The notes below the pieces were generated by a model. It did no database searches, had not been told where the DNA came from, and saw only the letters and a program-made list of their open reading frames with translations. Of a DNA stretch of 64,000 bases, positions 5,601-57,236 are shown piece after piece; the stretch's first letter is position 1, and the number at the start of each line of letters is the position of its first letter. A program made the translations under genes and the position numbers. The DNA comes from an uncultured virus (IMG/VR IMGVR_UViG_3300031555_005587) (taxonomy: Duplodnaviria > Heunggongvirae > Uroviricota > Caudoviricetes): the IMG/VR virus record IMGVR_UViG_3300031555_005587, positions 1 through 64,000 of that record. One strand, written 5' to 3'.

Positions 5601-5771
5601 GATCCTAATGGTCATTCCTCTGTATGGTTTAGTGGAGAACCTGGTACTGGACGTTGGAGTGAAGAAGATGATATTCTTATGAGAAATAGAAAATCATTTG
5701 AACGAATTCAAACAAAAACTGCTGATCTCGAAGGATGGAAAGACTTTGTAGAATCATATGTTCCAAATTAA
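2700..5771 (+). CDS. Large putative virion structural protein (possibly baseplate wedge-like)
   Basis: 1023-aa ORF, GTG start after AGGAGGT. The segment RNKGTEDVYYDLMRILGY resembles the KGT motif of baseplate wedge proteins. Function is tentative. Confidence 0.45.
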   Translation: MSKSTKQNGPLQNLFVDIKKILDFTEFKDLAAAKAAETELSKGMAEVWMNAIVKNDNYITYKKWWTKAMFQEISNNIKTLEYNYFINNPFNVPLKYRENLLIKGREAFLNQYVEQNDYYRKLSGLPPFETPESDYIYMSEELREKLHVENIPVHEMNVYIQNNYMNTEEYQNVLKNNPEKEYLKYLGRYKIDIYTARKAKDFDIIRYPSNRADINPNVLSAFASLYTDYREYVMVVLYNSKLEETHVNYRTFMGVLIISFALLQIGNKALESVNNHKYLDDAVLHTILSMYGIPESLLLTQDVRRDLAANILKLVRNKGTEDVYYDLMRILGYQDVTISKLMLMKGQEFDSENNNAALSSVNPYFLQLDLKDDNPYETIASGKAHIFDYHSIIDKDPTWWDLPDVQKILKESAYTLTDSKYIMIESVVHQMKYVFESIYFTRMILDNKTLTDEFNIEVPELFGKEMISVYDLILFVICATCMTNGLSGLINTETDKLLATAGFNFDLDIDSFIEFLNTTRYVDKNRIMKFLDNLSMNNIDDINRIFNDVMYPMREWLQEKISSSTIREEYVEYESIYRALYTYDFSRNKFLDDFEMPIETIKKKYNLSDEDLLAFKHFYPRSIDGKAVSVTEYNASVNNSRYHYPFLSLTENIDWYIHITLDTPDGKVDDRGYLYFHDILNSDNLLTLTNPDGTRVFMDYEDAEIGWEVNKQAVDKAISLISQLDDKALKNGYFQVYTPILNSHGKYYSDKEKLPATIRNSGIYKDILIDKIIMDTNGLATQPKTYFEALYRKNENLYNLLMKDDRFNRNKDAWMNDIMTIVMAIETGLNVHLKYFEQSVLGEELFFKPLITLIKHFKSKLVQIAKTGLKYVFDDKIDVGGNSNMFKMFDNVQFLVHFSTIDQKGYDSQFGFYDTERRITHHIIMKDRSEILRMVSGEGFLAETRESRMGSMRLVDEVKLSKNGTPLDPNGHSSVWFSGEPGTGRWSEEDDILMRNRKSFERIQTKTADLEGWKDFVESYVPN

Positions 5772-5777
5772 TAAAAA

Positions 5778-5823
5778 AATAAAAGATAAGGAGTGGTGTT
5801 AACACCACTCCTTATCTTTTATT
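5778..5823. terminator. 46-bp perfect palindrome between convergent genes (bidirectional terminator)
   Basis: AATAAAAGATAAGGAGTGGTGTT|AACACCACTCCTTATCTTTTATT. Confidence 0.75.
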
Positions 5824-6390
5824 ATAAACCAATGAGTGGATTTTATCACTTATAGTACCCCATATAACATATTGGAAATATTCAATACATCTTATTCTTC
5901 TACATTCATATGGAATTTTAATATTATCATTGATGAATTGTGTTATTTTATTACTATAACATGGATTCTTTTTATCTGGATAATACCATTTTGGTTTCTT
6001 CGTACTGATATAAAAATTTGGAATATCTTTGTAAAAATGTTGGAATTGACTAGATGTAGGATCTATATGAAAGTGATATCCGAGCATACTTAATTCAACC
6101 CATGTATGTTCATAGAACCATTTATTTGATTTTAATACAGGAGTGTGTTTTTGTTCACCATGTACAATTTTTATTTTTATTTTGAAACACTGATATTGCC
6201 AGTGTTCGTCTAATTGTTGATAAAATTCGTATTCAAATAATTTTGAAGCTCTATCACATAATCCAGTTAGTTTTAAATTATCAGGATTTTCAGCTAGTAA
6301 TTTATTTCGTACCCTTATTACAGCAGGTAAAATTAAATCATTTATTATTTTCTCTTTATTAGTTTTATGATTTAAATAATCATTATCCAT
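5812..6390 (-). CDS. Transglutaminase/papain-like Cys-His-Asp protein
   Basis: Motif order GLC...EHTWVEL...HIDPTSSQF matches a transglutaminase-like catalytic triad. Confidence 0.5.
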   Translation of the reverse strand: MDNDYLNHKTNKEKIINDLILPAVIRVRNKLLAENPDNLKLTGLCDRASKLFEYEFYQQLDEHWQYQCFKIKIKIVHGEQKHTPVLKSNKWFYEHTWVELSMLGYHFHIDPTSSQFQHFYKDIPNFYISTKKPKWYYPDKKNPCYSNKITQFINDNIKIPYECRRIRCIEYFQYVIWGTISDKIHSLVYNKR

Positions 6391-19101: not shown

Positions 19102-21123
19102 ATGTCAGATAATACAAACCTAATGCGTGAACTTTATATCCTTGAGGATGAAAACAATCCTTATGGGTCTAGATCTAAAGGTATATGGCCACCTACTATA
19201 TTAGATCAGGTATATGATAACTTATCTCCTACAAATAAAACACTGAGAACTATTTTAGAAGAATTAAGACATGATATTCTTACTGGGGGAATTGGCAATA
19301 TTACATTTCCAGTCACAACTGTTAATGGAATGAATGGAGATGTAATTATTAATGCGAAACATTTAGGTTTAGAAAATGTTGATAATACATCTGATAATGA
19401 AAAACCATTATCAAAACCTCAACGTCTTGCAGTGATGGAACTTCTAAAAGGATTCAAATATGAAGTAGATTTAAGTGATTTATATGACCATATTAGAGAC
19501 TCAAATAATCCTCATGGAATAACTTTTGAACACATTAATCGAAATAATGAGATTGGAAATTATATCTCTCAATATATCTTGAAACATGAAAATGATCAAA
19601 CATCTCATCAAGATATTAGAAATTTAATCAAGGATATTGATTATTCTGTTAAAAATATTCACAATGATGTTGAAGAAAGAATTTCTATTGCTCTTAGAAT
19701 TTTGGATCAACATTATGCAGATGAAGGAGCACATTCACCTTTATTTGATAAAAAAGAAGATGTATTGAATAAAGTATTTGATTTTGAAAATGTTGATCAT
19801 AAACGATATCCATCCGTAAGAGCAGTTGTAGATTATGTAACATCCGTAGCTAATACTTTAAGATCTGAGATCACTACAATAGAAAACTGGATAGATGATA
19901 TTATCGTTATTAGATCAAGAGATGATTTGCCATCTGCAAGTATTAAGACTTACCGTAAAGCATATTTCATTCGTAGAGGATTAAATAATAATGATGAGAT
20001 TGCCATTTGTCGAATAAATCCTGATAATACAACTTATTCTTGGGATATTTCTACATTTGATACGTATGCAAAATTTGATGAATCTTATTTTATTAACACA
20101 GATGATGGTTTATCTCTAAATACAACTAATATAGCTGAAACATTAATCAATGAAGGAAATATGAATAAAGGTATTTCTGAAATTGTTAATTCAGTATTAT
20201 TTGAATCCACTGCAATAATCAATTTCAATATTAATGAACTAGGAGAATTAACTGTTGAATATGATGAAAGATATCCTGATCCTATTCTATATATTGATGA
20301 AAATGGTGAATTGATACTAGAAGCAGATGATGGAACTCTTTCTGAATTCTTGGTTGAAAATTGTAACTTCGAAATTGTAAATGGACGATTAATTCTTACA
20401 ACTGAAGATATTGATATTGTAAATATTGGACATGGAAAGATTGCTAATTACTATACGAAGGATGAAATCGATGAATTTTCATTCATTAATAGTATTCAGA
20501 TATTATCAGGAACAGAGAATGGAACCATTCGATATTATATAAATAACGATATATCTACAATGTCTCCTGATATTAAAGTTACTGGTATTAATAAACTCGC
20601 ATTTCTTGAAAAGGTAACTGAAAATGAAATAGAAGACAACTCAGTCCATTCTCAACACATTCTAAACAGGGCAATTCAATATCGTCATATGGGAGAAAAG
20701 GCAGTATCTGCTGAAAATATGAGAGGATCTTACAATACTATATTTGGCAATGTTGAAGATTCTCAAGGTAACACGGTTAGAGAGATTCCTTTGACATATC
20801 TTGTAGAAGTTTTTCAGCCATATATTAAAGATTTTATTGCTCAGTATTTAACATCTTCTCCTGAAATGAAGTCAATACTAAAGGATATCTATGAAGAAAT
20901 AATTGCTGAGGAAATCATGAGTGAAGCTCCTATTACATTAACCATTCAAGATGGTTCATTAATAGCAACTTATGATGAGACTCAGTATAGTGAACCTGAT
21001 ATTGAAATTGATAAAGACGGGTATTTGATTTTAAATTCATCAGATACTGCAATTGATCAATACTTGGAAAGTATTTTCTTTAATATAGTTGATTCAACGT
21101 TAGTAATGACCGTAAATGAATAA
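19102..21123 (+). CDS. Tail fibre-like virion protein
   Basis: VTTVNGMNGDV, LGLENVDNTSDNEKPLS and HIRDSNNPHGIT are typical tail-fibre motifs, also present in 30604..35121. Repeated hxIdexGxLi beta-hairpins. Confidence 0.7.
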   Translation: MSDNTNLMRELYILEDENNPYGSRSKGIWPPTILDQVYDNLSPTNKTLRTILEELRHDILTGGIGNITFPVTTVNGMNGDVIINAKHLGLENVDNTSDNEKPLSKPQRLAVMELLKGFKYEVDLSDLYDHIRDSNNPHGITFEHINRNNEIGNYISQYILKHENDQTSHQDIRNLIKDIDYSVKNIHNDVEERISIALRILDQHYADEGAHSPLFDKKEDVLNKVFDFENVDHKRYPSVRAVVDYVTSVANTLRSEITTIENWIDDIIVIRSRDDLPSASIKTYRKAYFIRRGLNNNDEIAICRINPDNTTYSWDISTFDTYAKFDESYFINTDDGLSLNTTNIAETLINEGNMNKGISEIVNSVLFESTAIINFNINELGELTVEYDERYPDPILYIDENGELILEADDGTLSEFLVENCNFEIVNGRLILTTEDIDIVNIGHGKIANYYTKDEIDEFSFINSIQILSGTENGTIRYYINNDISTMSPDIKVTGINKLAFLEKVTENEIEDNSVHSQHILNRAIQYRHMGEKAVSAENMRGSYNTIFGNVEDSQGNTVREIPLTYLVEVFQPYIKDFIAQYLTSSPEMKSILKDIYEEIIAEEIMSEAPITLTIQDGSLIATYDETQYSEPDIEIDKDGYLILNSSDTAIDQYLESIFFNIVDSTLVMTVNE

Positions 21124-21200
21124 TGGTATGGAGAGGCTTATCATAAGCCTCTCCATACTTTACTATTTTATTAATTATTCTCATTTTGGAGGGATTAAAT

Positions 21201-23507
21201 ATGCAACATTTTAAGTTAGAAAAAGATTGTGTATTGTACAAAACACAATTTGAAAAGTATATGCTTGATATATTTGGAGACCACCGTCTGGATAGATATT
21301 CTTTAGATTTAGATGGAATTTTATTTAGAATTAAATATATGACTAAGCATAAAAGAGATCTTGATAAGATTCCAGAATTACAAGAGAAATTTACTAATAT
21401 TGCAATCCAGTTAAGAAAATGCTTTGGTGAATTTCTCTTTAACTTCTTAGCTCAGATTATAACAATTCCTGAACCATTTAAACTTGACAATATTGTTGAT
21501 ATTCTTGCTCATGATGTGAAGATGGATCCGAATTATGTAAAGTTTAAAATGATATTAATTTCAGATAGTAAAGAATATATTGAATATGTAGATTCAGCTT
21601 TTCCAGATAATGAAGTATTTAATATGTTTCCAAACGAATACTTTAGATTTTATACTGATTCATACAATGATGGAATTGCTAAAGCATATCCAGAACTATT
21701 TGAAAATAAACATCAGGACAAGATTGGTGTTGGAGCTGATGGAGATGTATTCTGCCACAACTTTACTTTTCAGACAGGAGAACGTTGTTCACTGAACTGT
21801 ACGTATTGTGTTCCAGATGGTACCAAAGTTACATTACCAGATTATTCAATGAAAAATATTGAAGATATCCAAGTAGGTGATAAAGTATTGGCAGTAGATG
21901 AACATCATCCTGTTGGTAAAGAACATACATTACGAGAATCTGAAGTTACACATGTTTTCAAAAGGGAAACAAATGGTTATTTTAAGATATCTCATAGAGC
22001 TTTAAAAGAACCTATTTGTATTACTGGTGAGCATCCTGTAAAAACAGAGAGACGTGGATGGATACCTGTAAATATGTTAAGATCAACGGATAAAATTTTG
22101 ATATCTTCAATAGATCCATATGATTTTTATTCTACGAATTTTAAAAATCCATCATTTATAATGAATAAAATCTCAAATTCATATCATTACTATAAAACGC
22201 AATACATTGGTGGATTTAAACTTGAAAATATTAAAGAAAAATGTACAGTGTATAATTTGGAAACAACTGAACATACTTACGCTATTGGAAGATTATTAGT
22301 TCATAATTGTTATCAGTTTAATAAATCAGAAATGAGAATGAGTTTTGAAACTGCAAAGAAGTTTATTGATAATTTATTGACTGATCAATATGGATATATT
22401 AATCAATATAATTCTCCTGCCATCATTATGGAGTTTATTGGTGGCGAACCTTTGCTTGAAATTAATCTTACAAGAAAGATTTATGAATATTTTCTTGATA
22501 GATGTTACGAATTAAATCATCCTTGGTTTACTCTTCATAGACTTTCAATATGTTCTAATGGTATGCAATATTTCGATAAAGAAGTTCAAGATTTTTTTAA
22601 AGAATATTCTTCACAAATTTCATTCAATATTTCCATTGATGGAAATAAAGAATTACATGATGCTTGTAGAGTTCAACCAAATGGAGAAGGAAGTTATGAT
22701 ATTGATATATGTGCACTGAATCATTATAATAAACATTTTACACCAGAGAGAAATTCTAAGATGACTTTGGCTCCATCTAATATTTCATATCTATTTGATT
22801 CAGTCGTAAACTTTATTAACAACGGAATGACAGTTATTAATATTAACTGCATTTTCGAAGAGGGTTGGAACCAAGAGACTGCACGAATTGAATATTATCA
22901 GTTAAAGAAATTAGCTGAGTATATATTAGAGAATGATTTAGATCATCTTTATATAGCCATATTTAATGAACGTCAAGAAGACGTGATGCCTAAAGAACAG
23001 GATGGATCATTTTGTGGAGGTGCCGGTTCCATGCTTGCTATGAGACCTAATGGACAGTTTTATCCATGTATTCGTTACATGCCATCTTCTGTTGGTAATA
23101 ATGTAAAAGATCTTTGTATTGGAACTGTCGATACAGGTATTCATGGACGAGAAGAAGGATCTGATATCATTAGAATGTTAGATAGAATTACACGACGTGC
23201 ACAAAACAATGACATCTGTTATGAATGTCCAATTTCAAATGATTGTGCTTCTTGTTTAGCATTAGGACATACAGTATTTGGTACTCCTAATAAGAGAACA
23301 AACTTCATCTGTATCCAAATGATTGCTGAGGCGTTAGCTAATGTATTTTACTGGAATGCATTATTAATCAAACATCCAGAATATAATCTCGATGTAAGAA
23401 AAAATAATGTTCCAGATAAATGGGCTCTCTTAGTAATAGATGAAGAAGAACTTGATTATTTGAAAAAACTTGAAGCATATGCAATGATCATAAAGATGGA
23501 AAGATAA
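21201..23507 (+). CDS. Radical SAM/SPASM peptide maturase (CXXX-repeat target type) containing a mini-intein
   Basis: After intein removal: FTFQTGERCSLNCTYCYQ (CxxxCxxC), MSFETAKKFID, EFIGGEPLL, ISIDG..ELHDACR. SPASM motifs FCGG..MLAMRPNGQFYPC and CYECPISNDCASC...FIC. ~185-aa N-terminal extension. Start MQHFKL after GGAGG. Confidence 0.9.
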   Translation: MQHFKLEKDCVLYKTQFEKYMLDIFGDHRLDRYSLDLDGILFRIKYMTKHKRDLDKIPELQEKFTNIAIQLRKCFGEFLFNFLAQIITIPEPFKLDNIVDILAHDVKMDPNYVKFKMILISDSKEYIEYVDSAFPDNEVFNMFPNEYFRFYTDSYNDGIAKAYPELFENKHQDKIGVGADGDVFCHNFTFQTGERCSLNCTYCVPDGTKVTLPDYSMKNIEDIQVGDKVLAVDEHHPVGKEHTLRESEVTHVFKRETNGYFKISHRALKEPICITGEHPVKTERRGWIPVNMLRSTDKILISSIDPYDFYSTNFKNPSFIMNKISNSYHYYKTQYIGGFKLENIKEKCTVYNLETTEHTYAIGRLLVHNCYQFNKSEMRMSFETAKKFIDNLLTDQYGYINQYNSPAIIMEFIGGEPLLEINLTRKIYEYFLDRCYELNHPWFTLHRLSICSNGMQYFDKEVQDFFKEYSSQISFNISIDGNKELHDACRVQPNGEGSYDIDICALNHYNKHFTPERNSKMTLAPSNISYLFDSVVNFINNGMTVININCIFEEGWNQETARIEYYQLKKLAEYILENDLDHLYIAIFNERQEDVMPKEQDGSFCGGAGSMLAMRPNGQFYPCIRYMPSSVGNNVKDLCIGTVDTGIHGREEGSDIIRMLDRITRRAQNNDICYECPISNDCASCLALGHTVFGTPNKRTNFICIQMIAEALANVFYWNALLIKHPEYNLDVRKNNVPDKWALLVIDEEELDYLKKLEAYAMIIKMER
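21807..22307 (+). mobile_element. Mini-intein (167 aa, no endonuclease) inside the radical SAM CxxxCxxC motif
   Basis: Starts CVPDGTKVTLPDYSMKNIEDIQVGDKVL (block A), has ITGEHP (block B), and ends VYNLETTEHTYAIGRLLVHN followed by Cys at +1. Confidence 0.92.
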
Positions 23508-23564
23508 AATGATACACAGGAGAGGGATTTCCCTCTCCTGTGTTTATACACTAACTTATGATAA

Positions 23565-24092
23565 TTAAGCAGTTGTATCAGGTTCAGTTGTTTCTGTACC
23601 ATCTTCTGCAGGTTCTTCAGATTCATTAGAATCTTCTGCACCTGCATCGGTACCAGCGTCTTCATCTTCTGCATCCTTAGTATAAGTTACAGTAACTTCA
23701 ACGCCTTCAGCTACCATATCACCAGTCAATAAAGTCTGATCAGCAGTATAACCTACGAAACTAGGAGGTGCATACGTGTATTCACCGCCAACATTGAACA
23801 TTCTTTCTACAGGATCAGGAACTGTTAGATCTTCAGGACCTTCGAATGTTACTTTAAGAGCTGCACGAGCTGCAACTACATCGATGTCATTACCAGGACC
23901 TTCTTTTTCTTCAGATGCTTCAGCTTCAGGATCTTCCATTTTAGCTACAAGCTCAGGAACAATCTGTTTGAATTCCTCACGAGTGATCTGAATTCCAGGT
24001 ACACTGTTGAAAAGATAATGCAAAGCATTAAACAATTCATTTGCTGCACCGGCAGTATCACCAGCAGCAATACATTCATTAATTTTAGCCAT
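23565..24092 (-). CDS. Acidic protein with MucBP-like domain
   Basis: LKVTFEG...GGEYTYAPPSFVGYTADQTLLTGDMVAEGVEVTVTYT matches the MucBP pattern. Start MAKINE after AAAGGAG. Confidence 0.6.
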   Translation of the reverse strand: MAKINECIAAGDTAGAANELFNALHYLFNSVPGIQITREEFKQIVPELVAKMEDPEAEASEEKEGPGNDIDVVAARAALKVTFEGPEDLTVPDPVERMFNVGGEYTYAPPSFVGYTADQTLLTGDMVAEGVEVTVTYTKDAEDEDAGTDAGAEDSNESEEPAEDGTETTEPDTTA

Positions 24093-24221
24093 ATTAAAGA
24101 CTCCTTTCATGATTTACTTTTGTTTTATCCAGTTTATTTCCCAGGATTAATTATCTGTAATTAGAAAATTATGAATGAAAACGACTATTTAATTATTGAT
24201 TTCTATCGTGGAGGTGTTAAT

Positions 24222-26471
24222 ATGAATAAAGATCTTTATTCAAATCAAGAATTCACTGAATTAAAACACCGATTAAATCAGGAAATACAGAGAAGAAGTA
24301 CATTTTCTTGGTGGGATCCGCTAACAACACCATCTGTTGGAGAAGATAAATCATCTCCAATGTCATTACCTGATATCGGTCAACGAGTTTCAGTTGATGA
24401 TAAAACATATACAATCAATAATCCTTCTGAGGGATCTATTGAAAGGACTAAAAATATTCATTATCAAAATCATGGAGATAGTCCATCAGGTGATGATAGT
24501 GAATTTATTTCAACAGTTCCAAATACATCTGCAGCTAAAATGGATGCAGATGAAATGAGAAACTTTTTGGTTGGTTTATCTAAAATAAAAGATATCAATC
24601 TTTTTTATGGTAGAGATGAAATCCCAGGTCTTGCTTATAGAGATCCATCTGGAATAGAAGAAGTACTAACAAGTGCTGAAAAAGATAAATTACATGAATA
24701 TATTGTAGGTGAATATTCAAAGAATGATCCTAATAATGGAGCTAACGATCATTTAGACGGAAATTATCCTAGTAATATTCACGAAGTTCATTACGATATT
24801 GAAAATGGAATTGCTGTAATGAAATCCGGAGAATATGATGGAGAAGAATTAAACACCCATGATGGTTTAGGTCCTAATAATTTCTTTGATGATTATGGGG
24901 CAGAACCAGGAGATGGTGATTTTCATCCTTATAACAGAGGATATACTCCACAAAGTAGACGAGATTGGAAAATACATAATAATCAACGTAAAACAGAAAA
25001 GGTTTATGTTACTGAAGGAGGAATACCAACTTCTTCTTTTGGACCAAATCCTAGAAATCCAGTCCAAGGTAAAGAATATAAATCTCGTCCAGTATTTAAA
25101 GGATCTCCAAGTACTTGTCAGGTTGCTTGTACTGGTCTATGTAGCGTTACTTGTGATGATCAATGTTCAGAATCTTGTTCTTCAACATGTTGGAGTCGAT
25201 GTGGTAATGCTTGTACTTCTTCATGTGGTAATGCTTGCACAGGTTGTAGTACTTTATGTTATACATCTTGCAAAACTAAATGTGAAAACATTTCTGGATA
25301 TGCTTGTGTAACTGCTGGAGCAAAAGCTATTAAAATAACAACATCTGGTGGCACTAATGGTGTACCTGCAAAAAATGAAATCCAAGCAGAAACATATTCA
25401 TGTCAAGGATGTTCATATAGTTGTCAATTTTATCCTAATAAAAAGACAACTTGTTGGGATGCTGGATGTATGGGTAATTGTTTTATCTCTTGTAACACAG
25501 CATGTTCAACTGCCTGTACTGGTGGTTGTATTAATAATACAGCTGAAGAAGGTACTTCATATAAAACTGGTAAAGGCAGAGGATGTTCTTCTGGATGTAC
25601 ATTAAACTGTATTGGAAATTGTTCTGGGACATGTGAAGGACAATGTGTGACAACTTGTTGGCATGCATGTAAAGAAACATGTACTGACAATTGTACATTC
25701 GAATGTTCTACAAATTGTGGAAGTGGTTGTGCTAGTGGATGTAAAGATGGTTGTACAGGATGTACAGGAACTTGTGAATCTTATTGTGAAGGACAAACCG
25801 ATTCAATAGGATGTACAGGTTGTAGCACAAAAGGCGGTTGTACATCTACTTGTCAGCATGGCTGTAATAAAAATTGTGTTGGTATAGGATGTAGATCAAT
25901 TTGTGGTATTGAAGCTGCTGGAGCTTGTGAAGCTAATTGTAGAATCAATTGTATGAGTTCTAGTTGTTCAGCTATGTGTTCTAATCAATGTTCAGATCAA
26001 TGTACAACATGTGTCAATACCTGTGGATTTGGATGTGGGTATTGTTCTTCCGTATGTTCTTCTGGTTGTGATGCTGCTTGTGAAATCACGTGTAGTGAGA
26101 AGTGTGAACATTCTTGTGAAAATAATTGTGTTCAGTCTTGTAGTGAAGAATGTGGCGGATGTTCTTCATTATGCTTCTCATGTGTTGGAATGTGTATTGG
26201 AGTTTGTAGTGTACATTGTGAAAATGGATGTACCAGTTGTTCAGTAATGTGCGGATGGTGGTGTGATTCTTCATGTAATCAACAATGCTTTGCAAATTGT
26301 GACACTTTCTGTATATCTGATTGCTCTGGTTCTTGTATAACATTCTTAATGAGTAAAGCTAATACTACCATTGGACCTGAAAATAACCCTACAGCTGAAG
26401 GATATAAGTGTCCTCATCCTTCTAATAGAGAAGAGGAACGTGAATCATTTATTATTAGGAAGGATGAATAA
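24222..26471 (+). CDS. Giant Cys-rich (Cxxx)n protein, putative radical SAM substrate
   Basis: Cys-free N-terminal ~300 aa, then about 88 Cys (hand count) at 25116-26336, mostly spaced Cxxx. Start MNKDLYS after GGAGGT. Confidence 0.85.
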   Translation: MNKDLYSNQEFTELKHRLNQEIQRRSTFSWWDPLTTPSVGEDKSSPMSLPDIGQRVSVDDKTYTINNPSEGSIERTKNIHYQNHGDSPSGDDSEFISTVPNTSAAKMDADEMRNFLVGLSKIKDINLFYGRDEIPGLAYRDPSGIEEVLTSAEKDKLHEYIVGEYSKNDPNNGANDHLDGNYPSNIHEVHYDIENGIAVMKSGEYDGEELNTHDGLGPNNFFDDYGAEPGDGDFHPYNRGYTPQSRRDWKIHNNQRKTEKVYVTEGGIPTSSFGPNPRNPVQGKEYKSRPVFKGSPSTCQVACTGLCSVTCDDQCSESCSSTCWSRCGNACTSSCGNACTGCSTLCYTSCKTKCENISGYACVTAGAKAIKITTSGGTNGVPAKNEIQAETYSCQGCSYSCQFYPNKKTTCWDAGCMGNCFISCNTACSTACTGGCINNTAEEGTSYKTGKGRGCSSGCTLNCIGNCSGTCEGQCVTTCWHACKETCTDNCTFECSTNCGSGCASGCKDGCTGCTGTCESYCEGQTDSIGCTGCSTKGGCTSTCQHGCNKNCVGIGCRSICGIEAAGACEANCRINCMSSSCSAMCSNQCSDQCTTCVNTCGFGCGYCSSVCSSGCDAACEITCSEKCEHSCENNCVQSCSEECGGCSSLCFSCVGMCIGVCSVHCENGCTSCSVMCGWWCDSSCNQQCFANCDTFCISDCSGSCITFLMSKANTTIGPENNPTAEGYKCPHPSNREEERESFIIRKDE

Positions 26472-26473
26472 AT

Positions 26474-26740
26474 ATGGGAAGAATAAGTGAAGTAAAATAT
26501 ATACAAGTTGATCCAATTGATTATGATGTACATGAAGCTGCTCAACACTATTTTCATTCTAATGTAATTCCGATTCATGAAATGTTTTATGTTGGATATG
26601 AAGAATATGAATTAAAACAAAATTCTATTCGTAATAACATCACTAGAGATAATAGGGACGATAGTCTAAAATTGAATACGTCTACATTTGGGATATCGAT
26701 AAAAAATAATCAAGTCATTCTGGTAATCGATAAAGCATAA
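26474..26740 (+). CDS. Hypothetical protein co-transcribed with the Cys-rich gene
   Basis: 88 aa, starts 2 nt after the upstream stop; followed by palindrome 26744-26775. Confidence 0.7.
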   Translation: MGRISEVKYIQVDPIDYDVHEAAQHYFHSNVIPIHEMFYVGYEEYELKQNSIRNNITRDNRDDSLKLNTSTFGISIKNNQVILVIDKA

Positions 26741-26781
26741 CATTTAAGAGAGGAGCTATATAGCTCCTCTCTTAATCATCT

Positions 26782-27081
26782 TTACATCATTTCATATACT
26801 TGAATTGAATTTCCGGAAACTTCATATCCATCATAATTCCAGACATATTGAGAAAATCTAAAATGTTCAGGAACAAACTCATTTGTGATTCTGTATTTGA
26901 TAGCTTCAATTTTAGAAGTAATCGGAATAAGAGATTCTTCAAGCTTCTCAAATTTATTAGGATCATCTGCTACCTGTGTTAATACTCTCGTACGGATTGT
27001 TTCCTTTGTTAGTAATTCAGATAATTCTCTAGCAAGTTCATCAGGAATTGTAAAATTTCCTCGTAATACTTGATTGATCAT
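26782..27081 (-). CDS. Putative CXXX-repeat modification system accessory protein
   Basis: 99 aa: short beta strand, two long helices (ARELSELL..., FEKLEESL...), then WNYDG..terminal strand. Size and pattern resemble the ~90-aa CXXX-repeat-associated protein (from memory). Confidence 0.45.
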   Translation of the reverse strand: MINQVLRGNFTIPDELARELSELLTKETIRTRVLTQVADDPNKFEKLEESLIPITSKIEAIKYRITNEFVPEHFRFSQYVWNYDGYEVSGNSIQVYEMM

Positions 27082-30603: not shown

Positions 30604-33600
30604 TTATGAATAACGGAACCAGATATCACCATTCTGTCCATCGGTAGGTCTTCTATAAGAAATAATAGTATTTCTAATAGCTCTTCTTTCAAGATCAGAA
30701 TGCTTTTTAACTGTTGTATATGCAGGTAATTCAATTTCTTGAACAAGTTTATCTCCATTGATGGATTCATCTTGCATTTTACTCATAGAAATAGATTTAT
30801 CTGCAATCTTTTCTTCTGTTACAGATTCATTTCTAATTTTACTATTATCGATAGCATTATCTAGAATATGAACTGTATTGATCATTTCTTCATTAGCAAG
30901 TTTCTGAGCACCGATTGAAAAATCTTGAATCTTATTACCTTTGATAGAATTCATTTGAATCTTATCATCATTAATACTTTCATTTTCAATCATTTCAGAA
31001 TTAACTTTAACCCAATCAACTTTACCAGTTTCTTTATTCATAGAAATAACTGTATTTGGATCTTCAGAATCCTTGAATAAATCAGGGGTTAAAGTTTCTT
31101 TTTCAACCATTTCTCCAGTTATATTTGTCCATACTGGGTCAGTATTCGCATCAGTAACTGCAAGTACTTTATTAGGTTGCTCACTAGTGAATAATTTCTT
31201 ACCTGTAACTGCACGATCGTTGATATAATCTGTAATTACAGAATCTTCTTTTAGTATTGCACCCTTTTGTTCATTATATCCATATCCAGTGATGTCAATC
31301 ATTGGTTCTGATTCAGGTTCAATTTCTCCAGTAATGATACCACGAATTCTAGATACATCAATAGGAGCAATCTCGTTTTCTTTTACTTCAAAGGAACTAG
31401 AAGCATATGTAACTTCTAATGTTCCGTCAACCATGTCACTGATATCTTTATTAGAAATACTTAGTACTTCATCACCATAGTCAGTGTACATAGATGGATT
31501 ATTTGTAACTACTTGATCATTATTAAGTATAGCATACATTGTATCTTGTGAAATAGGAATAATATAAGAGTAATCAACTCCAGAACCATTTCCACATCCA
31601 CAATTACAAGACGAACCAGAATTTCCTTCAAGAGTAAGATTAATACTACCATCTTCAGTATCTTCAACAGAAACTTCACCATCGATAATAGCACGAATTC
31701 TTTCTGCAGAAATTGGTTCTATAACAATATCACCAATTTGTGTACTTTCAGAAGATTCCTCAACAATTAATTCCTCATCAACGATAGCTTCGAGAATAGA
31801 TTCATCAATACGATCAAATTCAACGTCATTATACGTAAATGATTCATTTGAACTTGCTTCAGTTTCACCTGCAAGTATACTTAGAATGGTTTCATCACTG
31901 ATGTCATCTATGGTGATATTTCTAGTAACACTAGAACTTGAATCATTACCAGAATCTCCAGTACCTGGTGAACCACCGCTATTCAATCCACCATAACAAG
32001 GAATTCTTGATTGTAGATTAGAATTGAATTTTGCCAAATGCTCGATAATTCTATCAATAACCCACTGACAGTCCGGTATTAATTCACCATCACCATTATC
32101 ATCACTTGCTTGTGGTGCTGGACGAACTTCTACTTTCGGTGAACCAAGTAATTCAATACTTCTTACCAGCTTATCTCTGGTAATAGAAGCATTTTCAATC
32201 ATGTCCTCGACTACTTTCATATATTGAGGAGCTGAACCGGCTTCACTTACTCCAAGAATTACATTAGATACTTCCGAAGATTTAAGTTTAGATATATCTA
32301 TTAATCCATCTGGTAAAATTACTTCTCCTTCATGAGAATAATTACCCATCATAGATTTAATAGTTTTTCGCACCCAAGCAGTATCAGGAATAGAATTATC
32401 ATTTGAATATTCGGCTGGTCTATCGGCAATTCGTGTATTACCATAAAATAGTAAATCGTGTTTTAATTTAGAATGACCAATAGATCCATCTTCAATAAAC
32501 TCTTCCGTGATCTGAATAAAATCAGGTACATCTCCAATATTAACAGAACCTAATACTCTGAAAGGTCTTTCACTTCTGAATATTTTTTCACCAGTAACAG
32601 ACATATCTTCGATCATATCTGTTTGAATTTGCATCCATTTTATTTGATCACTATCTTTTCCGATACCAATAATTCTACTCTTTATATCAGGAATTGCTAA
32701 TTTGCTTATTTCTATTGAATGATCGGCAATATGTTCATTAATAATAACCTCTGGTAGAATATGCGTAGAATCAATTATCTGCTTTGCTAAATATTTAGAG
32801 GTGATAGATTCATCTTTAATGTTAGAAATGTCAAACTTAACATCTTCTCCTAACATTTTAGAAGTAATCTTCATATATTTAGCAGGTGTATTAGCATCTT
32901 CAACAGCAAGTACCATATCAGAGATACTACTACTAAATATCTTCTCACCAGTAACGGAATAATCCTCGATGAAATCTGTAGTAAGTTTCATCCATTTTGG
33001 AGTTCTATTAATTAAATCAAAACCCAAAATAGATTTATTGATATCAGGAATTGCTAGTTTTTCTTCAGTTATGGATTCATCAATAATAGCATCAGTTCCA
33101 ACAGAAGCTGTAGCCATCATTTCTCTTGTGATCTGAGAATATTGAGGGTGTCCACCATCTGGACCAACAGCTAGTACTCTATTAGGGATTTCAGATTTAA
33201 AAATCTTTTCACTAGTTACAGAAGATTCTTCAAGAGCTAATGTAGAAACAGAATCTTTATCGAGAACTCTTTTAGATACTGATCTATTCGCTAATTTTTC
33301 TTCAGTAACTGCATTAGATTTAATATTGTGGGAATCTACAGATTCATCATCCAACATATCTGAATTAATTCTGCCCCAGTAAGCATCTCCATTAACTTCA
33401 GTAACTATTAAAGCTCTATTTTTCAATGGAGAAGAAAAAAGATGTTCTCCGCTTACTGAATGCGGAGCAATATTTTTTCCAGTAATAGTAATATTGCTGA
33501 ATAACTTACGAACCCATGATGTATCAGGAATACTGTTATCATCAGATTCTAATACAGGAGATTCATTTAATTTAACATTACGCAATACTGCATATTGAGC

Positions 33601-35121
33601 AATCTTATCTCCAGTAACTGCATTTTCTCTGATGTTATTTGTATCAACTGCAGTATCTGCAATTTTTTCATGAGTTACTGATTTATCTGATAATTTGGAT
33701 GTAGATATAGCATTATCAGCAATCATCTCATTAATTACTTGCATCCACTCTGCATCTGATCCAGCTTCTTTTACAGCTAAAATCCTATTAGATATTTCAG
33801 ATGTAAATAATACTCTACCTGTAAGTGTATGAGTTTCAATATTAGAATCTTTAATAGTTCCATCTGCAATCTTTTCTGTTGTAATAGATCCATCAGCATA
33901 GTTGATGGTAGTAATTGTTAAATCAGCTATCTTATTACCAGTAATAGATTTATCGGCATACACAGAATTACCTAAAGAATTATCTAATATCTCATTAGAA
34001 GTAATGCTCTTTGGAATAATTGAAGCACTTATAAGATTTGCATCTTTATTTACTTCAATTTTGATATGGGTTCCAATTGTACCTATATATTTCTGAACTA
34101 GATTCTGAATACTGATACGCTTAGAAGATCCATTTAATTCAGTAATAACCAATTCATTAGTTTCCTGATCTACAGTAATTTCATCAACTAAACCATCAGT
34201 AACAATTGGAATAGATACGACTGAAGTATCATTAAAAGATATCAATAATCTACCTTTTGTTTGATCATAATTGATATCAATTACATATTTCAAGTCACCA
34301 TATAAACCACTAATTCCAGAAATTAATGCATTTAAATTATCTAATGCATTCTTAGTTGCTCTAGAAATAGGTTTATCAATATCGGAAGTATTATCTACAT
34401 TACTTAACCCAATCTGATCTTTAGTTACTTCATGTGGATTATTTTTATCAAGAGTATGATTTTCAAAAGTAACTAAATCTACTGCACCAATCTGTTTAGC
34501 TGTTACATGATGAGGATTTTCATAATCAGATATATGTTTAGTAATATTAACTCCGAATTGAGTAGAATCAATTTCTGTTATTATATTAGACATTTCTTTT
34601 CTAATATCAGAAATTAATTTTGTTATCGCAGCTTGAGAAACAATACCTGTTTCATCATCGCCTAATTCATTATATATTTCTGGCCTACCAACAATTGCAG
34701 TCCATAGTAATTTGGTCGTGTCATCACCAGTAGCATTTCCATTATTATCTACAAAGCCATATTTACGAAGTAATTCACCTACAGCTTTTTCTGTTGGAAT
34801 TCTATCACTTCGTTGAGAAGCTTCATCGTATGGAATTTTAGTACTAATTTGAATAGATCCAATAGCACCAGCTGCTCCACCATAAGTTACTAAATTATCA
34901 GCTGATTTAGCAGGGATAAGAGGTTGACGTCCATTCAAATCAGAATTAATTTGTTCTAATACTTCTGCTAATGTAGGACTATCCTCATCGTACATATCCT
35001 GTCGTACAGCTTTAAATACAGTAATAGGAAATGTGTTCTTATAATTTAGATTAGGTGGAGGAGTGGCGTTGGGATCTATCCACACACGTGATTGAATAAT
35101 TTCATGTCCTATTAGTCCCAT
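30604..35121 (-). CDS. Long tail fibre-like protein (1505 aa)
   Basis: NPHHVTAKQIG, NPHEVTKDQIGLSNVDNTSDIDKPIS, many (S/A)VTxxK(I/L)xD repeats, recurrent IPDxxWV, C-terminal PTDGQNGDIWFRY. Confidence 0.8.
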   Translation of the reverse strand: MGLIGHEIIQSRVWIDPNATPPPNLNYKNTFPITVFKAVRQDMYDEDSPTLAEVLEQINSDLNGRQPLIPAKSADNLVTYGGAAGAIGSIQISTKIPYDEASQRSDRIPTEKAVGELLRKYGFVDNNGNATGDDTTKLLWTAIVGRPEIYNELGDDETGIVSQAAITKLISDIRKEMSNIITEIDSTQFGVNITKHISDYENPHHVTAKQIGAVDLVTFENHTLDKNNPHEVTKDQIGLSNVDNTSDIDKPISRATKNALDNLNALISGISGLYGDLKYVIDINYDQTKGRLLISFNDTSVVSIPIVTDGLVDEITVDQETNELVITELNGSSKRISIQNLVQKYIGTIGTHIKIEVNKDANLISASIIPKSITSNEILDNSLGNSVYADKSITGNKIADLTITTINYADGSITTEKIADGTIKDSNIETHTLTGRVLFTSEISNRILAVKEAGSDAEWMQVINEMIADNAISTSKLSDKSVTHEKIADTAVDTNNIRENAVTGDKIAQYAVLRNVKLNESPVLESDDNSIPDTSWVRKLFSNITITGKNIAPHSVSGEHLFSSPLKNRALIVTEVNGDAYWGRINSDMLDDESVDSHNIKSNAVTEEKLANRSVSKRVLDKDSVSTLALEESSVTSEKIFKSEIPNRVLAVGPDGGHPQYSQITREMMATASVGTDAIIDESITEEKLAIPDINKSILGFDLINRTPKWMKLTTDFIEDYSVTGEKIFSSSISDMVLAVEDANTPAKYMKITSKMLGEDVKFDISNIKDESITSKYLAKQIIDSTHILPEVIINEHIADHSIEISKLAIPDIKSRIIGIGKDSDQIKWMQIQTDMIEDMSVTGEKIFRSERPFRVLGSVNIGDVPDFIQITEEFIEDGSIGHSKLKHDLLFYGNTRIADRPAEYSNDNSIPDTAWVRKTIKSMMGNYSHEGEVILPDGLIDISKLKSSEVSNVILGVSEAGSAPQYMKVVEDMIENASITRDKLVRSIELLGSPKVEVRPAPQASDDNGDGELIPDCQWVIDRIIEHLAKFNSNLQSRIPCYGGLNSGGSPGTGDSGNDSSSSVTRNITIDDISDETILSILAGETEASSNESFTYNDVEFDRIDESILEAIVDEELIVEESSESTQIGDIVIEPISAERIRAIIDGEVSVEDTEDGSINLTLEGNSGSSCNCGCGNGSGVDYSYIIPISQDTMYAILNNDQVVTNNPSMYTDYGDEVLSISNKDISDMVDGTLEVTYASSSFEVKENEIAPIDVSRIRGIITGEIEPESEPMIDITGYGYNEQKGAILKEDSVITDYINDRAVTGKKLFTSEQPNKVLAVTDANTDPVWTNITGEMVEKETLTPDLFKDSEDPNTVISMNKETGKVDWVKVNSEMIENESINDDKIQMNSIKGNKIQDFSIGAQKLANEEMINTVHILDNAIDNSKIRNESVTEEKIADKSISMSKMQDESINGDKLVQEIELPAYTTVKKHSDLERRAIRNTIISYRRPTDGQNGDIWFRYS

Positions 35122-41313: not shown

Positions 41314-42996
41314 TTATTTTAGCATGTTATAATATACTCCATGCTTTTCTACTAGTTCTTGATGACTTCCTGATTCTACCACTGTACCGTTTTGGATCAC
41401 ATAAATTATATCACAATTTTGTATAGTTGATAATCTATGAGCGATTGTTATTATAGTCTTTCCTTCCAAGGCATCTACTGCATCTTGAATGATAGTTTCA
41501 GATTCATTATCGAGAGCACTTGTGGCTTCGTCTAGTAGTATAATTTCCGGGTTCTTAAGAAATAATCTTGCTAAAGATATTCTCTGTTTCTGTCCACCTG
41601 ATAGTTTTAAACCTCTTGGCCCAACTTCTGTGTCAAACTTCTTGTCCAATGACAATATGAATTCTAGAATATGAGCTTTGTTGCAGGCATCTAATAATTC
41701 ATTTTCAGTAGCATGAGATGAACCATACATGATATTTTCTTTAATAGTTCCAGGAAAGATTATGTTTTCCTGATGTACAGATCCAACGTGTTTTCTATAA
41801 CTATCAAGTGTTATCTCGTTTAACGGAACTCCATCAATTGTTATTTCTCCACCCTTATGATCATAGAAACGATTCAGAAGTTTAAATAAAGTTGATTTTC
41901 CACCACCACTAGTTCCACAAATTCCTATTTTCTGCCCTTTCTTAATTTTCATATTAACGCCAGCTAATGTATTGTTAGAATTATCATATGAAAATGTTAC
42001 ATTTTTGAGATTAATTTCATCCTTAAATTCTAACAACTCTACAGACCCATCTCTCATCAAACCAGGATATTCAATAATATTTTTATATTCATCTTTCAAT
42101 GACATGTTATCAGAAATATCAGATATAAAATCAAGTATTGCTAACATTGGATCCATGAGTTTAAATACTAGCATTATTAAACTCATTGCTTGAGCTTGAT
42201 TAAGAGCTTCAAGAGAAAGCTGATAAATTGTATATCCAATTACAATAATTAATCCAACTGCTTCAACACCATCTATTGATCCATATAATATTGAATTAAT
42301 TTTTGCTTTCTTTATTTGGTTTCCGCATATTTCTTGATTTTTATTTCTTATAGAAATTCGATGTTCTTCAACTGTATTAAATGATCTAACCTCGGCAAAT
42401 CCATTAATGATGTTTTCTACTTCCTGATTCCTTTTTCTTTTGACAACTGTAAACGCTTCATCAATTTTCATATACTCTTTATAAACTTTACTGAAAATTA
42501 TCATTCCTATGAAATAAATGATGATTATTGGAATTATCATATCTCCACCAATTTGATACATTGTAAACAATGTTATGATTATCGCACAGCAACGAATGAT
42601 GAAAGCTCCGGTATTCATACCGATACTAGAAATCTTACTGAGAAATTCTTGAGCAGTATTAATTCGAGCAACCGAATATTTAGTAAACATTTTGTATTCA
42701 GCACCTAGAATTTTATCTACATATCTATTGATCAATGTAGTATACACTTGTTTGATACTAGCTGTTCGTAAATAACCAACAAGAGAACTTGCAATTATAT
42801 TCGTGATTAGTACGAATACGAGTGTGATCAAATGATTAATCCAATTTTCAATATCACCGAAAATATTGGATATCATTATCACTAAATAGTTACTGATTAC
42901 CACTGTTACAAGATTACAGATAAACCAACATAACAACATCATGCAAGCTTTCTTATCTTGTAACCATTCTTTGAAAATAAATTTCATTTTAAGCAC
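41314..42996 (-). CDS. ABC exporter, fused TMD-NBD half transporter (ABCB/MsbA-like)
   Basis: About six TM segments, Walker A GTSGGGKST, Q-loop VHQE, LSGGQKQR, ILLDEATSALD, IAHRLST. Confidence 0.95.
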   Translation of the reverse strand: MLKMKFIFKEWLQDKKACMMLLCWFICNLVTVVISNYLVIMISNIFGDIENWINHLITLVFVLITNIIASSLVGYLRTASIKQVYTTLINRYVDKILGAEYKMFTKYSVARINTAQEFLSKISSIGMNTGAFIIRCCAIIITLFTMYQIGGDMIIPIIIIYFIGMIIFSKVYKEYMKIDEAFTVVKRKRNQEVENIINGFAEVRSFNTVEEHRISIRNKNQEICGNQIKKAKINSILYGSIDGVEAVGLIIVIGYTIYQLSLEALNQAQAMSLIMLVFKLMDPMLAILDFISDISDNMSLKDEYKNIIEYPGLMRDGSVELLEFKDEINLKNVTFSYDNSNNTLAGVNMKIKKGQKIGICGTSGGGKSTLFKLLNRFYDHKGGEITIDGVPLNEITLDSYRKHVGSVHQENIIFPGTIKENIMYGSSHATENELLDACNKAHILEFILSLDKKFDTEVGPRGLKLSGGQKQRISLARLFLKNPEIILLDEATSALDNESETIIQDAVDALEGKTIITIAHRLSTIQNCDIIYVIQNGTVVESGSHQELVEKHGVYYNMLK

Positions 42997-56500: not shown

Positions 56501-57236
56501 ATGGAGCTGAGTTAGCCATAATTTCTCCAAAGAATGGAGTATGTTCAATTTCGTCAAAATAAAGAATAGCACCAGAACCACCACGACCAAGACCCTGGGC
56601 ATGAGATAATGAAGTTGGTTTTGGATGAATTTCCAGAGTATTGTGTAACAAGTTATTCTCTAACTTTTCAGTAGCCTGACGAGATTTCTTTATTTTTCCA
56701 TCTTCTCCCATGAATCGTCTAAATTGTAACCATTCAGGAAGTAATTCAATATTACTTTTTAAATGAGCTAAGTTTCGTTTTGTATTATCAGTTTCCTTAC
56801 CAAAGAAATGCATGTGTAAGTTTTGGGATAATTGAAATGCCCATAGAATTGGTCCACCAATTGTTCCAGTAGTCTTATATGTCTGACGAGGTTCACAAAT
56901 ACAATTATCTTGATGACGTTCGAAACACCATATTACTGCAGCTAATCCACGATGTAGTGAGTAAGGTACTACACCTTTATCGGTTCTCATACGTACACAC
57001 ATACGTATGAATGCCCAAACATTATGTTGAAATTCTTGCATTAATGCTTTAATTTCTTGCTCAGTAATATTAGGTTTAAATGGATCTATATCAGCAACTC
57101 TTGGATTGTCTATTCTAAGCATGAAGTAATAATTCTTAATTCCAACAGCCTTTAATTCTTTAGCTGTAATTAAGAATGATTCATTCGACGTGCCAAAATC
57201 GTAAAAATGACCATTAATCTGTTTAATATCACTCAT
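53521..57236 (-). CDS. terL: Terminase large subunit; two exons, 716 aa spliced
   Basis: Exons 57236-56430 and 54864-53521. Walker A EPRQTYKTT, GRG, Walker B ILYFDE, spliced SCTP|GNLDTREG, nuclease motifs VGIDPAGG, PEKNSMG, HDDCVMAYL. Confidence 0.9.
54865..56429 (-). mobile_element. Group I intron in the terminase gene (1565 nt), with an endonuclease gene in the P1 loop
   Basis: Exon end CACCU pairs with GGGUG at ~55284-55288. Core UUCGGGAAACUC, AAUCCGCAGCUAAG, GUUCAUCGACUA, AGAUAUAGUC; terminal G at 54865. Confidence 0.88.
55293..56345 (-). pseudogene. HNH homing endonuclease disrupted by two homopolymer frameshifts
   Basis: HRIVAYEFCL continues in another frame as NRDIRLQIDHIDGNKQNNHYTNLEWVTSAEN across an A7 run (56130-56136). 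A second shift at an A5 run near 55430 extends the frame to TAA at 55293. Confidence 0.8.

Follow-up and report, generated by a model that had tools for sequence, protein, structure and literature searches.

A stretch of 64,000 nucleotides from an uncultured virus of the Caudoviricetes (IMG/VR record IMGVR_UViG_3300031555_005587), hereafter called the window, carries a gene for a radical S-adenosylmethionine (SAM) enzyme with a SPASM domain and, on the same strand, a gene for a large protein in which cysteine recurs mostly at every fourth residue. The latter protein is referred to below as the ladder protein, or target. The window makes up the leading 64 kb of a virus record of 124.5 kb (G000) that is estimated to be 46% complete; the base composition of the window is of low GC content, about 30%. 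A reading made from the sequence alone had proposed that the phage applies to a large structural protein the kind of chemistry known from peptides that ribosomes make and that are modified after translation (RiPPs). The organization of the locus is as follows, with protein lengths in amino acid residues (aa).

21201..23507, + strand: precursor of a radical SAM/SPASM maturase of the CXXX-repeat target family, 768 aa (TIGR04115, phrog_1802)
21201..21770, + strand: N-terminal extension of the enzyme, ~190 aa, kept in the phage relatives and absent from the bacterial TIGR04115 enzymes compared
21807..22307, + strand: mini-intein of 167 aa within the CX3CX2C motif, recognized by its terminal residues, its exact absence in orthologues and weak Hint hits
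22308..23507, + strand: C-extein with the radical SAM barrel and SPASM domain, spanning TIGR04115 profile positions 14-359
24222..25115, + strand: N-terminal domain of the ladder protein, residues 1-298, with a conserved motif at residues 5-34
25116..26336, + strand: cysteine ladder, residues 299-705, with 88 Cys mostly in C-x-x-x register
26337..26471, + strand: short C-terminal tail of the ladder protein, where many relatives have extra modules instead
26474..26740, + strand: 88-aa protein, a candidate helper, translationally coupled to the target and starting 2 nucleotides past the target stop

The sequence-only reading took the gene at 21201-23507 to encode a radical SAM/SPASM enzyme. The search against family models that it suggested as a check bears this out and places the product in the maturase family of the CXXX-repeat system. 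That system consists of a target repeat (TIGR04114/PF27846), a maturase (TIGR04115), a protein of ~90 aa (TIGR04116), and a second maturase (TIGR04119); the numbers given in the earlier reading were nearly right, and the second maturase exists besides. Enzyme residues 365-717 match TIGR04115 (rSAM_Cxxx_rpt) with an E value of 2e-94 and 317 bits, against a curated cut-off of 350 bits. The match begins at profile position 14, with positions 1-13 lost, because the CX3CX2C motif is interrupted by the intein. Orthologues that naturally have no intein score 363.1, 360.1, and 329 bits. It follows that the phage clade straddles the cut-off. One of these orthologues is annotated by NCBI as a CXXX-repeat-target maturase. 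The profiles that come next are those of PapB, CcpM, QhpD, and the SCIFF maturase, and the enzyme also matches phrog_1802 (E 1e-43). The three radical SAM cysteines, C196, C200, and C370, which are contiguous after splicing, are invariant in all nine enzymes aligned, as are the seven SPASM cysteines, C605, C623, C673, C676, C682, C685, and C704. In a tree of the family, the phage enzymes form a clade of their own (seven of seven, support 100/100), separate from the Bacteroidales clade (nine of nine, 99/100). Two bacterial rows with internal stops were left out of this tree, and the branches of Cronobacter phage CR5 and the faecal phage L001 are long and unplaced.

The N-terminal ~190-aa domain is conserved in eight phage relatives and has no sequence match in Pfam, PHROG, NCBIfam, PDB, or Atlas. 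The fold was modelled with AlphaFold2 on the intein-less orthologue of locus L005, with a mean predicted local distance difference test score (pLDDT) of 79.3 and a predicted template modelling score of 0.82. In this model residues 1-150 have block-mean pLDDT values of 86-97 and are predicted to fold into two hairpins with three helices between them, followed by one more helix. The match of CteB (5WGG) to model residues 181-555 has Z 23.9 and a root-mean-square deviation of 4.0 over 334 residues. The alignment begins at model residue 181 and CteB chain residue 89, so that the phage N-terminal domain lies outside it.

The enzyme gene encodes a precursor that is interrupted by an intein running from C203 to H368-N369. 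The element has a Cys at position 1, ends in His-Asn, and is followed by C370 at the +1 position; that is, the nucleophile at the start, the His-Asn end, the +1 nucleophile, and a precise absence in orthologues are all found. The +1 residue is at the same time the third cluster-binding Cys, and C-S-L-N-C-T-Y are the last residues of the N-extein. At exactly the same point, no insert is present in the enzymes of Segatella copri (L002), of the faecal phage L001, or of L005 and L007. Hint-family Pfam matches of the intein are weak and all below threshold. Both junctions are bridged by contigs from two other sequencing runs, contigs from four runs in four studies carry the locus with the intein in place, and no intein-less allele is present in the contigs compared. 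Insertion at the third Cys of CX3CX2C is common to the window, L008, L010, and L006. The insert of L015 (about 5421-5834) lies three residues earlier, at the second Cys, as read from the alignment, and the L012 enzyme, of 1129 aa, probably carries more than one intein. As a separate observation, the ladder proteins P0009, P0039, P0058, and P0115 (1223-1259 aa) contain Hint and LAGLIDADG intein domains; the P0009 insert begins near residue 322, at the start of the ladder.

The second main gene, the open reading frame (ORF) 24222-26471 on the + strand, encodes 749 aa, in agreement with the earlier description of a cysteine-rich protein of ~750 aa. Its start at 24222 is preceded by GGAGG and agrees with the N-termini of homologues. 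There are 89 Cys in total, 88 of them within residues 299-705 and one at residue 730. The Cys-to-Cys gaps (n = 88) are of four residues in 68 cases and of three residues in nine. Forty-nine homologues with 45-67% identity have 83-96 Cys each, and nearly every ladder Cys is invariant. The mean column conservation over these 49 sequences is 0.99 for ladder Cys, 0.66 for ladder positions other than Cys, and 0.67 for the N-terminal domain. Since the non-Cys columns of the ladder are conserved like the N-terminal domain, the ladder behaves as a defined structure and not as low-complexity filler. Six IMG/VR relatives have 87-89 Cys at 44-63% identity; in a seventh the gene is split into two ORFs. 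Across contigs of four runs, none of the 18 differences listed for the target changes a Cys codon (40 of the 116 differences in the stretch are listed). In the tetrads, x1 is S in 25% and T in 14%, and x2 and x3 are a mixture of S, G, N, and T.

The family assignment of the repeat comes from a precomputed annotation. PF27846 (tSAM_targ_Cxxx_rpt) is recorded for P0001, the ladder protein of the window itself, and, of 120 homologues listed, for 119. Atlas clusters with PF27846 are mostly viral; at scores of 0.80-0.82, they serve as no more than a lead. The ladder protein had no match in local scans with NCBIfam and Pfam; the local Pfam scans never returned PF27846, even for the carriers P0009 and P0041.

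The N-terminal domain of the ladder protein is rare. A profile search with its 298 aa found only 27 relatives among 1.84 billion representatives. Of the six examined, three have the same architecture, one is P0134, and two are spurious repeat matches. The distant members P0133, P0141, and P0144 run on into a ladder that opens with C-x3-C-[TR]-G-L-C; P0134 has no ladder within the available part of its sequence. Searches of family databases, PDB, and Atlas gave no match to the domain. Residues 5-26 resemble the N-terminus of the 193-aa target of L001, a faecal phage unrelated to this one (22 aa at 55% identity, E 5e-5), and the remainders of the two targets are unrelated. A ladder opening of the form C-x3-C-[TY]-G-L-C is found in the L001 target and in the Segatella copri target as well; of 99 bacterial targets, 17 have it. 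When short proteins with the N-terminal motif were sought by a word-based search, one fragment only came up.

The sequence-only reading had named a lack of co-occurrence between homologues of the Cys-rich protein and the radical SAM gene as an outcome that would count against it. Eleven related loci bear the enzyme, and a ladder gene lies within 8 kb in nine of these. At L006 the ladder gene is 60 kb from the enzyme gene in the same complete 289-kb genome (G001). A ladder protein is thus encoded in the record of 10 of the 11 enzyme-bearing loci; the eleventh, L009, was searched at the locus only. In the 124.5-kb record, there is only one Cys-ladder gene, alongside the only radical SAM gene, that at 21201-23507. 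Public data hold 148 target clusters and more than 3000 enzyme clusters, and many of these are on contigs 260-300 kb long. The locus is real and conserved, with family membership, repeat anatomy, co-occurrence, an intein, and gene units that are observed, and it is a phage version of a bioinformatically defined kind of system.

It is very likely that the enzyme acts on the ladder protein as its substrate. The ladder might instead be mainly a scaffold for metal or iron-sulfur clusters, or form disulfides after release, with few or no Cys modified by the enzyme. A register of 89 regularly placed thiols would bind metals, and AlphaFold2 finds no fold for the bare chain: the model of the target, built on the 49-sequence alignment, has a mean pLDDT of 44.4, with residues 299-707 at 23-40. 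A fold search with this model, run against 48,161 chains, had no match with a Z of 5 or more, the best being 4.0, and is uninformative on the fold. Metal binding has also been raised by the authors of a study of another cysteine-rich protein, CrpA, for their own protein (main text of PMC13692751). If the ladder were mainly such a scaffold, however, nothing would explain why its gene is so consistently paired with that of a dedicated maturase from a family that modifies targets, and the bacterial repeat homologues are defined as modification targets. We consider it improbable that metal binding or disulfides account for the ladder.

The candidate helper gene, described as coupled in the sequence-only reading, starts 2 nucleotides past the target stop and has a Shine-Dalgarno sequence within the end of the target gene. 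Directly 3′ of their target genes, L005, L007, and L010 also have an 88-aa gene (tblastn E 5e-16 to 6e-14), and so does L008. The same order is kept in the complete G001 genome despite the 60 kb that separate target and enzyme genes there; therefore, the 88-aa gene belongs with the target and not with the enzyme. In L015 and L012 a small ORF with just 18-19% identity occupies its place. The 88-aa protein has no match in family, PDB, or Atlas searches. The possibility that the gene is a split-off C-terminal module of longer target homologues was rejected, as those homologues have their own downstream 88-aa gene.

The chemistry is likely to be thioether formation, as judged from the margin by which the profiles of thioether formers outscore those of other chemistries. 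The PapB profile gives the window enzyme 128 bits, and 128-155 bits with the orthologues included, and the sulfatase maturase profile gives the same enzymes 44-53 bits. The best solved relative by sequence in the PDB search is CteB (E 1.1e-20). By its resemblance to PapB and CteB, the enzyme would join Cys sulfurs to carbons. The fold model points less clearly. Its Z of 22.7 with an anaerobic sulfatase maturase (anSME) and of 21.9 with ChlB are near the value for CteB. Conversion of Cys to formylglycine, as by the anaerobic sulfatase maturases, epimerization, or formation of carbon-carbon links would be in keeping with these values, with the lack of a fixed acceptor residue in the tetrads, and with the outcome of literature searches, in which no characterized TIGR04115 member was found. 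The profile scores and the place of CteB as the nearest PDB sequence argue for a thioether former, and a ladder modified by one of these other chemistries is, in our estimate, rather unlikely.

Where the ladder protein would act is a further matter, for which the upstream neighbour is relevant.

19102..21123, + strand: fibre-like protein of 673 aa with weak PHROG hits, given for context only and outside the enzyme system

Tail-fibre and minor-tail PHROG families match this 673-aa protein (eight families, best E 2.3e-5), all on residues 39-115. Its gene is conserved 5′ of the radical SAM gene in L005, L010, L012, and L015. The last 58 aa of the protein are 38% identical to the C-terminus of the L015 ladder protein (E 6e-10, a single comparison), and similar modules are inserted in or added to other ladder homologues. 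A clear tail fibre is encoded at 30604-35121 (phrog_892, E 1.3e-33). The sequence-only reading had set the block between two tail-fibre-like genes. The upstream hits are weak, and the downstream fibre is indeed there, but 3.5 kb beyond, with a virion structural protein gene and an exonuclease gene between. Neighbouring genes are structural by PHROG. We put a virion location for the ladder protein at about even odds, from the gene context and from the terminal module common to target relatives and the fibre-like neighbour; the small ladder ORFs among virion and tail-chaperone genes of the cultured Cronobacter phage CR5, described below, point the same way.

Alternatively, the ladder would be modified and the product would not be part of the virion. 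It would then be a very large RiPP-like product, released at lysis or kept inside the cell, with possible roles as an adhesin or matrix protein, as a metal scavenger, or as a factor against the host or competitors. The bacterial relatives are exported: of the 99 Bacteroidales targets, 86 have a twin-arginine-like N-terminus, and TatA/TatC are encoded beside the Segatella copri locus. The N-terminal domain of the phage target matches no known virion protein, and the G001 target is beside neither the enzyme gene nor an evident fibre gene. The phage target does have an Arg-Arg pair at residues 24-25 (24291-24296), which does not vary among the 49 ladder proteins and which the L001 target has too, but inspection of the sequence finds no hydrophobic segment after it, as a twin-arginine translocation (Tat) signal would have. 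The twin-arginine motif of bacterial targets lies at about this position, and it might be speculated that the phage Arg-Arg is a twin-arginine remnant now used in recognition rather than export. No exporter or leader protease is found among the annotated ORFs of the window and the rest of the record, target relatives have a terminal module in common with the fibre-like neighbour, and the gene context is structural. A non-virion product is unlikely on this evidence, somewhat less so than the scaffold and the other chemistries considered above.

We propose the following scheme, in which the modification, its thioether chemistry, the recognition route, and the virion location are what we infer from the data above. 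The enzyme would be made as a precursor whose CX3CX2C motif, which binds the [4Fe-4S] cluster, is split by the intein, so that the catalytic cluster would be bound only after splicing. The spliced enzyme would recognize the 749-aa protein, probably via its own ~190-aa N-terminal domain and the N-terminal motif of the target, the start of the ladder (C-x3-C-T-G-L-C), or both. It would then move along the ladder, most likely joining Cys sulfurs to carbons of nearby residues to form thioethers, as PapB, CteB, and QhpD do. This would yield a domain of ~400 residues, densely stapled and resistant to reduction, in a protein with a probable place on the virion as a fibre-like appendage. The coupled 88-aa protein would serve as a helper to the target.

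A dedicated enzyme-substrate pair that makes a stapled ladder on a probable virion appendage, with the 88-aa protein as helper, has in our estimate a probability of about 0.5 as a whole. More tentatively, and with doubts that outweigh our confidence, we suggest that a rod or domain of ~400 residues in a virion appendage is held by dozens of thioether staples, up to about 80, and not by ordinary folding, and that an intein-gated enzyme makes it. Several points weigh against the scheme. The window enzyme scores below the TIGR04115 cut-off (317 against 350 bits). The tetrads have no dominant acceptor residue, and the C-x3-D rule of PapB-type enzymes is not applicable. The Z values of anSME and ChlB are near that of CteB, and structure therefore leaves the chemistry unsettled. 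The two genes are 60 kb apart in G001, and adjacency is therefore not required. TIGR04116 and TIGR04119 are missing from the record and from the complete G001. The fibre character of the 673-aa upstream protein rests on weak hits, and the N-terminal domain of the ladder protein has no link to a known virion protein in PHROG, PDB, or fold searches. Finally, no RNA run among those listed contains the locus.

Other features of the region are as follows.

21125..21159, + strand: terminator-like hairpin between the fibre-like and radical SAM genes, with a 16-pair stem and then a T-rich tail
23514..23543, - strand: terminator-like hairpin between the radical SAM gene and the convergent 181-aa gene, with a 13-pair stem and 8 G-C pairs
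23565..24110, - strand: acidic protein of 181 aa with a sub-threshold MucBP match, its gene a variable insert and no conserved member of the system
26744..26775, + strand: terminator-like hairpin closing the unit of target and 88-aa gene, at the convergence point, with a 14-pair stem
26782..27081, - strand: 99-aa protein, last gene of a convergent operon (exonuclease, 80-aa protein, 332-aa virion structural protein, 99-aa protein)

The three terminator-like hairpins divide the locus into three units: the enzyme gene alone, the convergent 181-aa gene, and the target with the 88-aa gene. The motif ATTAATTAT lies ahead of both main genes (21170 and 24146), as had been noted under the heading of late-type promoters; it has six copies in the window, against 6.4 expected by chance, and the promoter claim is not supported. 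The MucBP match of the 181-aa gene is weaker than the sequence-only reading had it, at E 2.2e-4 and 22.3 bits, just under the Pfam threshold of 23. Among nine loci searched, a homologue of the 181-aa protein is found in L015 only, and other relatives have unrelated genes at this place.

The 99-aa ORF, which had been counted as part of the system, is real and conserved, but it goes with a virion protein gene on the other strand. It always comes after the gene for a virion structural protein of 332 aa, phrog_21032. The counterpart of the 99-aa protein in G001 forms the C-terminal domain of a longer protein, of 449 aa, whose gene adjoins that for phrog_21032 and is separated by 10 kb from the target gene and by ~50 kb from the enzyme gene. 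The window may therefore encode on its own a domain that is elsewhere part of a fusion. Since the domain is tied to the virion gene both in the opposite operon and in G001, the 99-aa protein is placed outside the enzyme system. The 449-aa protein (L027 433-1782) has repeated beta-rich modules, a side observation. Membership of the 99-aa protein in TIGR04116 had been entertained from a BLASTP match (E 9e-4) and a resemblance by eye; it was rejected on an hhalign probability of 0.1 and on the genomic behaviour just described.

The phage itself is best explained as a phiKZ-like jumbo phage of an anaerobic animal-gut host. PHROG matches in the window include a major head protein, a tail sheath, a split large terminase, pieces of a split phiKZ-type RNA polymerase beta gene, and a tail fibre of 1505 aa. 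The relatives reach 289 kb and have terminal repeats. A DNA search of a phage database gave no near relative. Ribosome sites of the window's genes are strong GGAGG sequences, and two homologues come from bins labelled Lachnospiraceae and Ruminococcus. Eleven DNA runs from animal faeces or gut, including goat gut, contain at least half of the sampled words of the stretch. The host would be a Clostridia-type gut anaerobe.

Some further genes of the record may be mentioned. The large terminase is encoded in two separate ORFs, at 53521-54876 and 56412-57236, both on the - strand, with other ORFs between. Two pieces, 47609-48781 and 46479-47225, likewise make up the RNA polymerase beta-like gene, and an HNH endonuclease gene (45436-46332) adjoins them. 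A 560-aa ATPase resembling those of ABC transporters (41314-42996, - strand; phrog_2392, E 4e-124) is encoded among structural genes. The rest of the G000 record encodes a Cpn60/GroEL-like protein of 619 aa and a phiKZ-type internal head protein (L112 286-2145 and L113 1019-2074, both on the - strand), and ThyX, a dCTP deaminase, and a thymidylate kinase are also encoded in the record. Among the 45 ORFs of 110 aa or more outside the window, no gene for a flavodoxin, a ferredoxin, a SAM synthetase, or iron-sulfur assembly was found at E values up to 1e-5.

If the proposed scheme is true, RiPP-type radical chemistry serves to make a viral structural protein, and the outcome is a structural material proof against reduction and proteases. 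The ladder protein would be the largest known RiPP-type substrate and the first virion protein known to be enzymatically cross-linked in such a manner. The locus would be a testable system for processive cross-linking of a protein and the first functional handle on the bioinformatically defined TIGR04115 family. It would also account for how gut phages could harden exposed appendages in a reducing, protease-rich habitat.

The closest comparison is with the bacterial CXXX-repeat system, which is itself, as far as our searches show, defined only bioinformatically; work by Haft and Basu in 2011 is said to be the origin of family definitions of this type. At the Segatella copri locus (L002/L030), a target with a Tat signal is accompanied by TIGR04115, TIGR04119, TIGR04116, and tatA/tatC. 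We sampled 80 Bacteroidales loci, of which 74 have a CXXX ORF within 5 kb, for 99 ORFs in total. Their median length is 129 aa and their median Cys count 16, and the largest count is 61, in agreement with the earlier statement that bacterial targets are typically short; the phage target is larger than all of them. The maturases are of the same family, with 36% identity between the phage and S. copri enzymes and TIGR04115 as top match, and both kinds of target have a Cys at every fourth residue and the C-x3-C-x-G-L-C opening. In contrast, the phage enzyme has the ~190-aa N-terminal domain and the intein; the phage target is without a Tat signal, begins with a domain of 298 aa, and holds 89 Cys. 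The phage set is also without TIGR04116 and TIGR04119. The ~90-aa partner of the sequence-only reading is not found here: neither the 88-aa nor the 99-aa protein matches TIGR04116 at E values up to 10, with hhalign probabilities of 0.1-0.5, and the family has no match in the six-frame translation of G000 or in the complete G001. For TIGR04119, only the enzyme's own SPASM part matches in G000 and G001, at 27-32 bits against a cut-off of 150.

CteB is the maturase of the SCIFF peptide thermocellin, and PapB that of the ranthipeptide freyrasin. Like these enzymes and QhpD, the phage enzyme has a radical SAM barrel with the CX3CX2C motif and a SPASM domain with seven Cys, and the substrates are rich in Cys; the SCIFF core also has several C-x3-C steps. 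The known substrates, whether peptides some tens of residues long or a small subunit of an enzyme, acquire few links, as opposed to a phage ladder of 88 Cys in a protein of 749 aa. The N-terminal recognition domain of CteB (chain residues 1-88) is not aligned with the phage N-terminal domain, and the phage locus, unlike the loci of these systems, is without a nearby leader protease or exporter. The phage domain may itself be a RiPP recognition element, for which a winged-helix, PqqD-like fold would be expected.

A protein-sized substrate is known from archaea. CrpC, a SPASM radical SAM enzyme of TIGR04463, puts thioethers on CrpA, a Cys-rich protein of 28.8 kDa in Methanococcus voltae (2026; PMC13692751). 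CrpA has a 17-residue repeat, a C-x-x-Q/D motif, ranthionine links, and a leader-like N-terminus, according to the main text of that paper. This qualifies, from another family, the earlier statement that no experimental description of such chemistry was known. The two systems are alike in a SPASM enzyme and a repeat-bearing, Cys-rich substrate of protein size, and the AlphaFold model of the Cys-rich part of CrpA is, by the same text, of low confidence as well. They differ in that TIGR04463 gives the phage enzyme only 33.6 bits against a cut-off of 525, and in that CrpC-CrpA is archaeal and cellular; the main text of PMC13692751 does not contain the word phage. In the literature searches made, neither CXXX-repeat systems nor Cys ladders of phages were the subject of any paper that came up, and CrpC-CrpA is the nearest published work. 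Supplemental Data set 1 of PMC13692751 is a list of Cys-rich proteins associated with radical SAM enzymes from all domains, and viral or TIGR04115 cases may be among them.

A comparable arrangement is present in a cultured jumbo phage, Cronobacter phage CR5 (L023, NC_021531). Two ladder ORFs, at 2995-3387 and 3399-3800, encode proteins of 130 and 133 aa with 21 Cys each. Together with a truncated paralogue, they lie directly 5′ of two radical SAM genes, among genes for virion structural and tail-chaperone proteins. The ladder ORFs are unannotated on their own strand, a hypothetical gene, CR5_157, being listed across them on the opposite strand; CR5_156 is the third paralogue, in which the ladder is lost. 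The CR5 ladders have about a quarter of the Cys count of the window's target and are without its 298-aa N-terminal domain, and the two CR5 enzymes are distantly related to the window's (TIGR04115 113 bits; 22-24% identity). As in the window, C-x3 ladders stand beside radical SAM genes in a structural context, and relatives of the CR5 type are found in 38 records of Erwinia, Salmonella, and Cronobacter phages.

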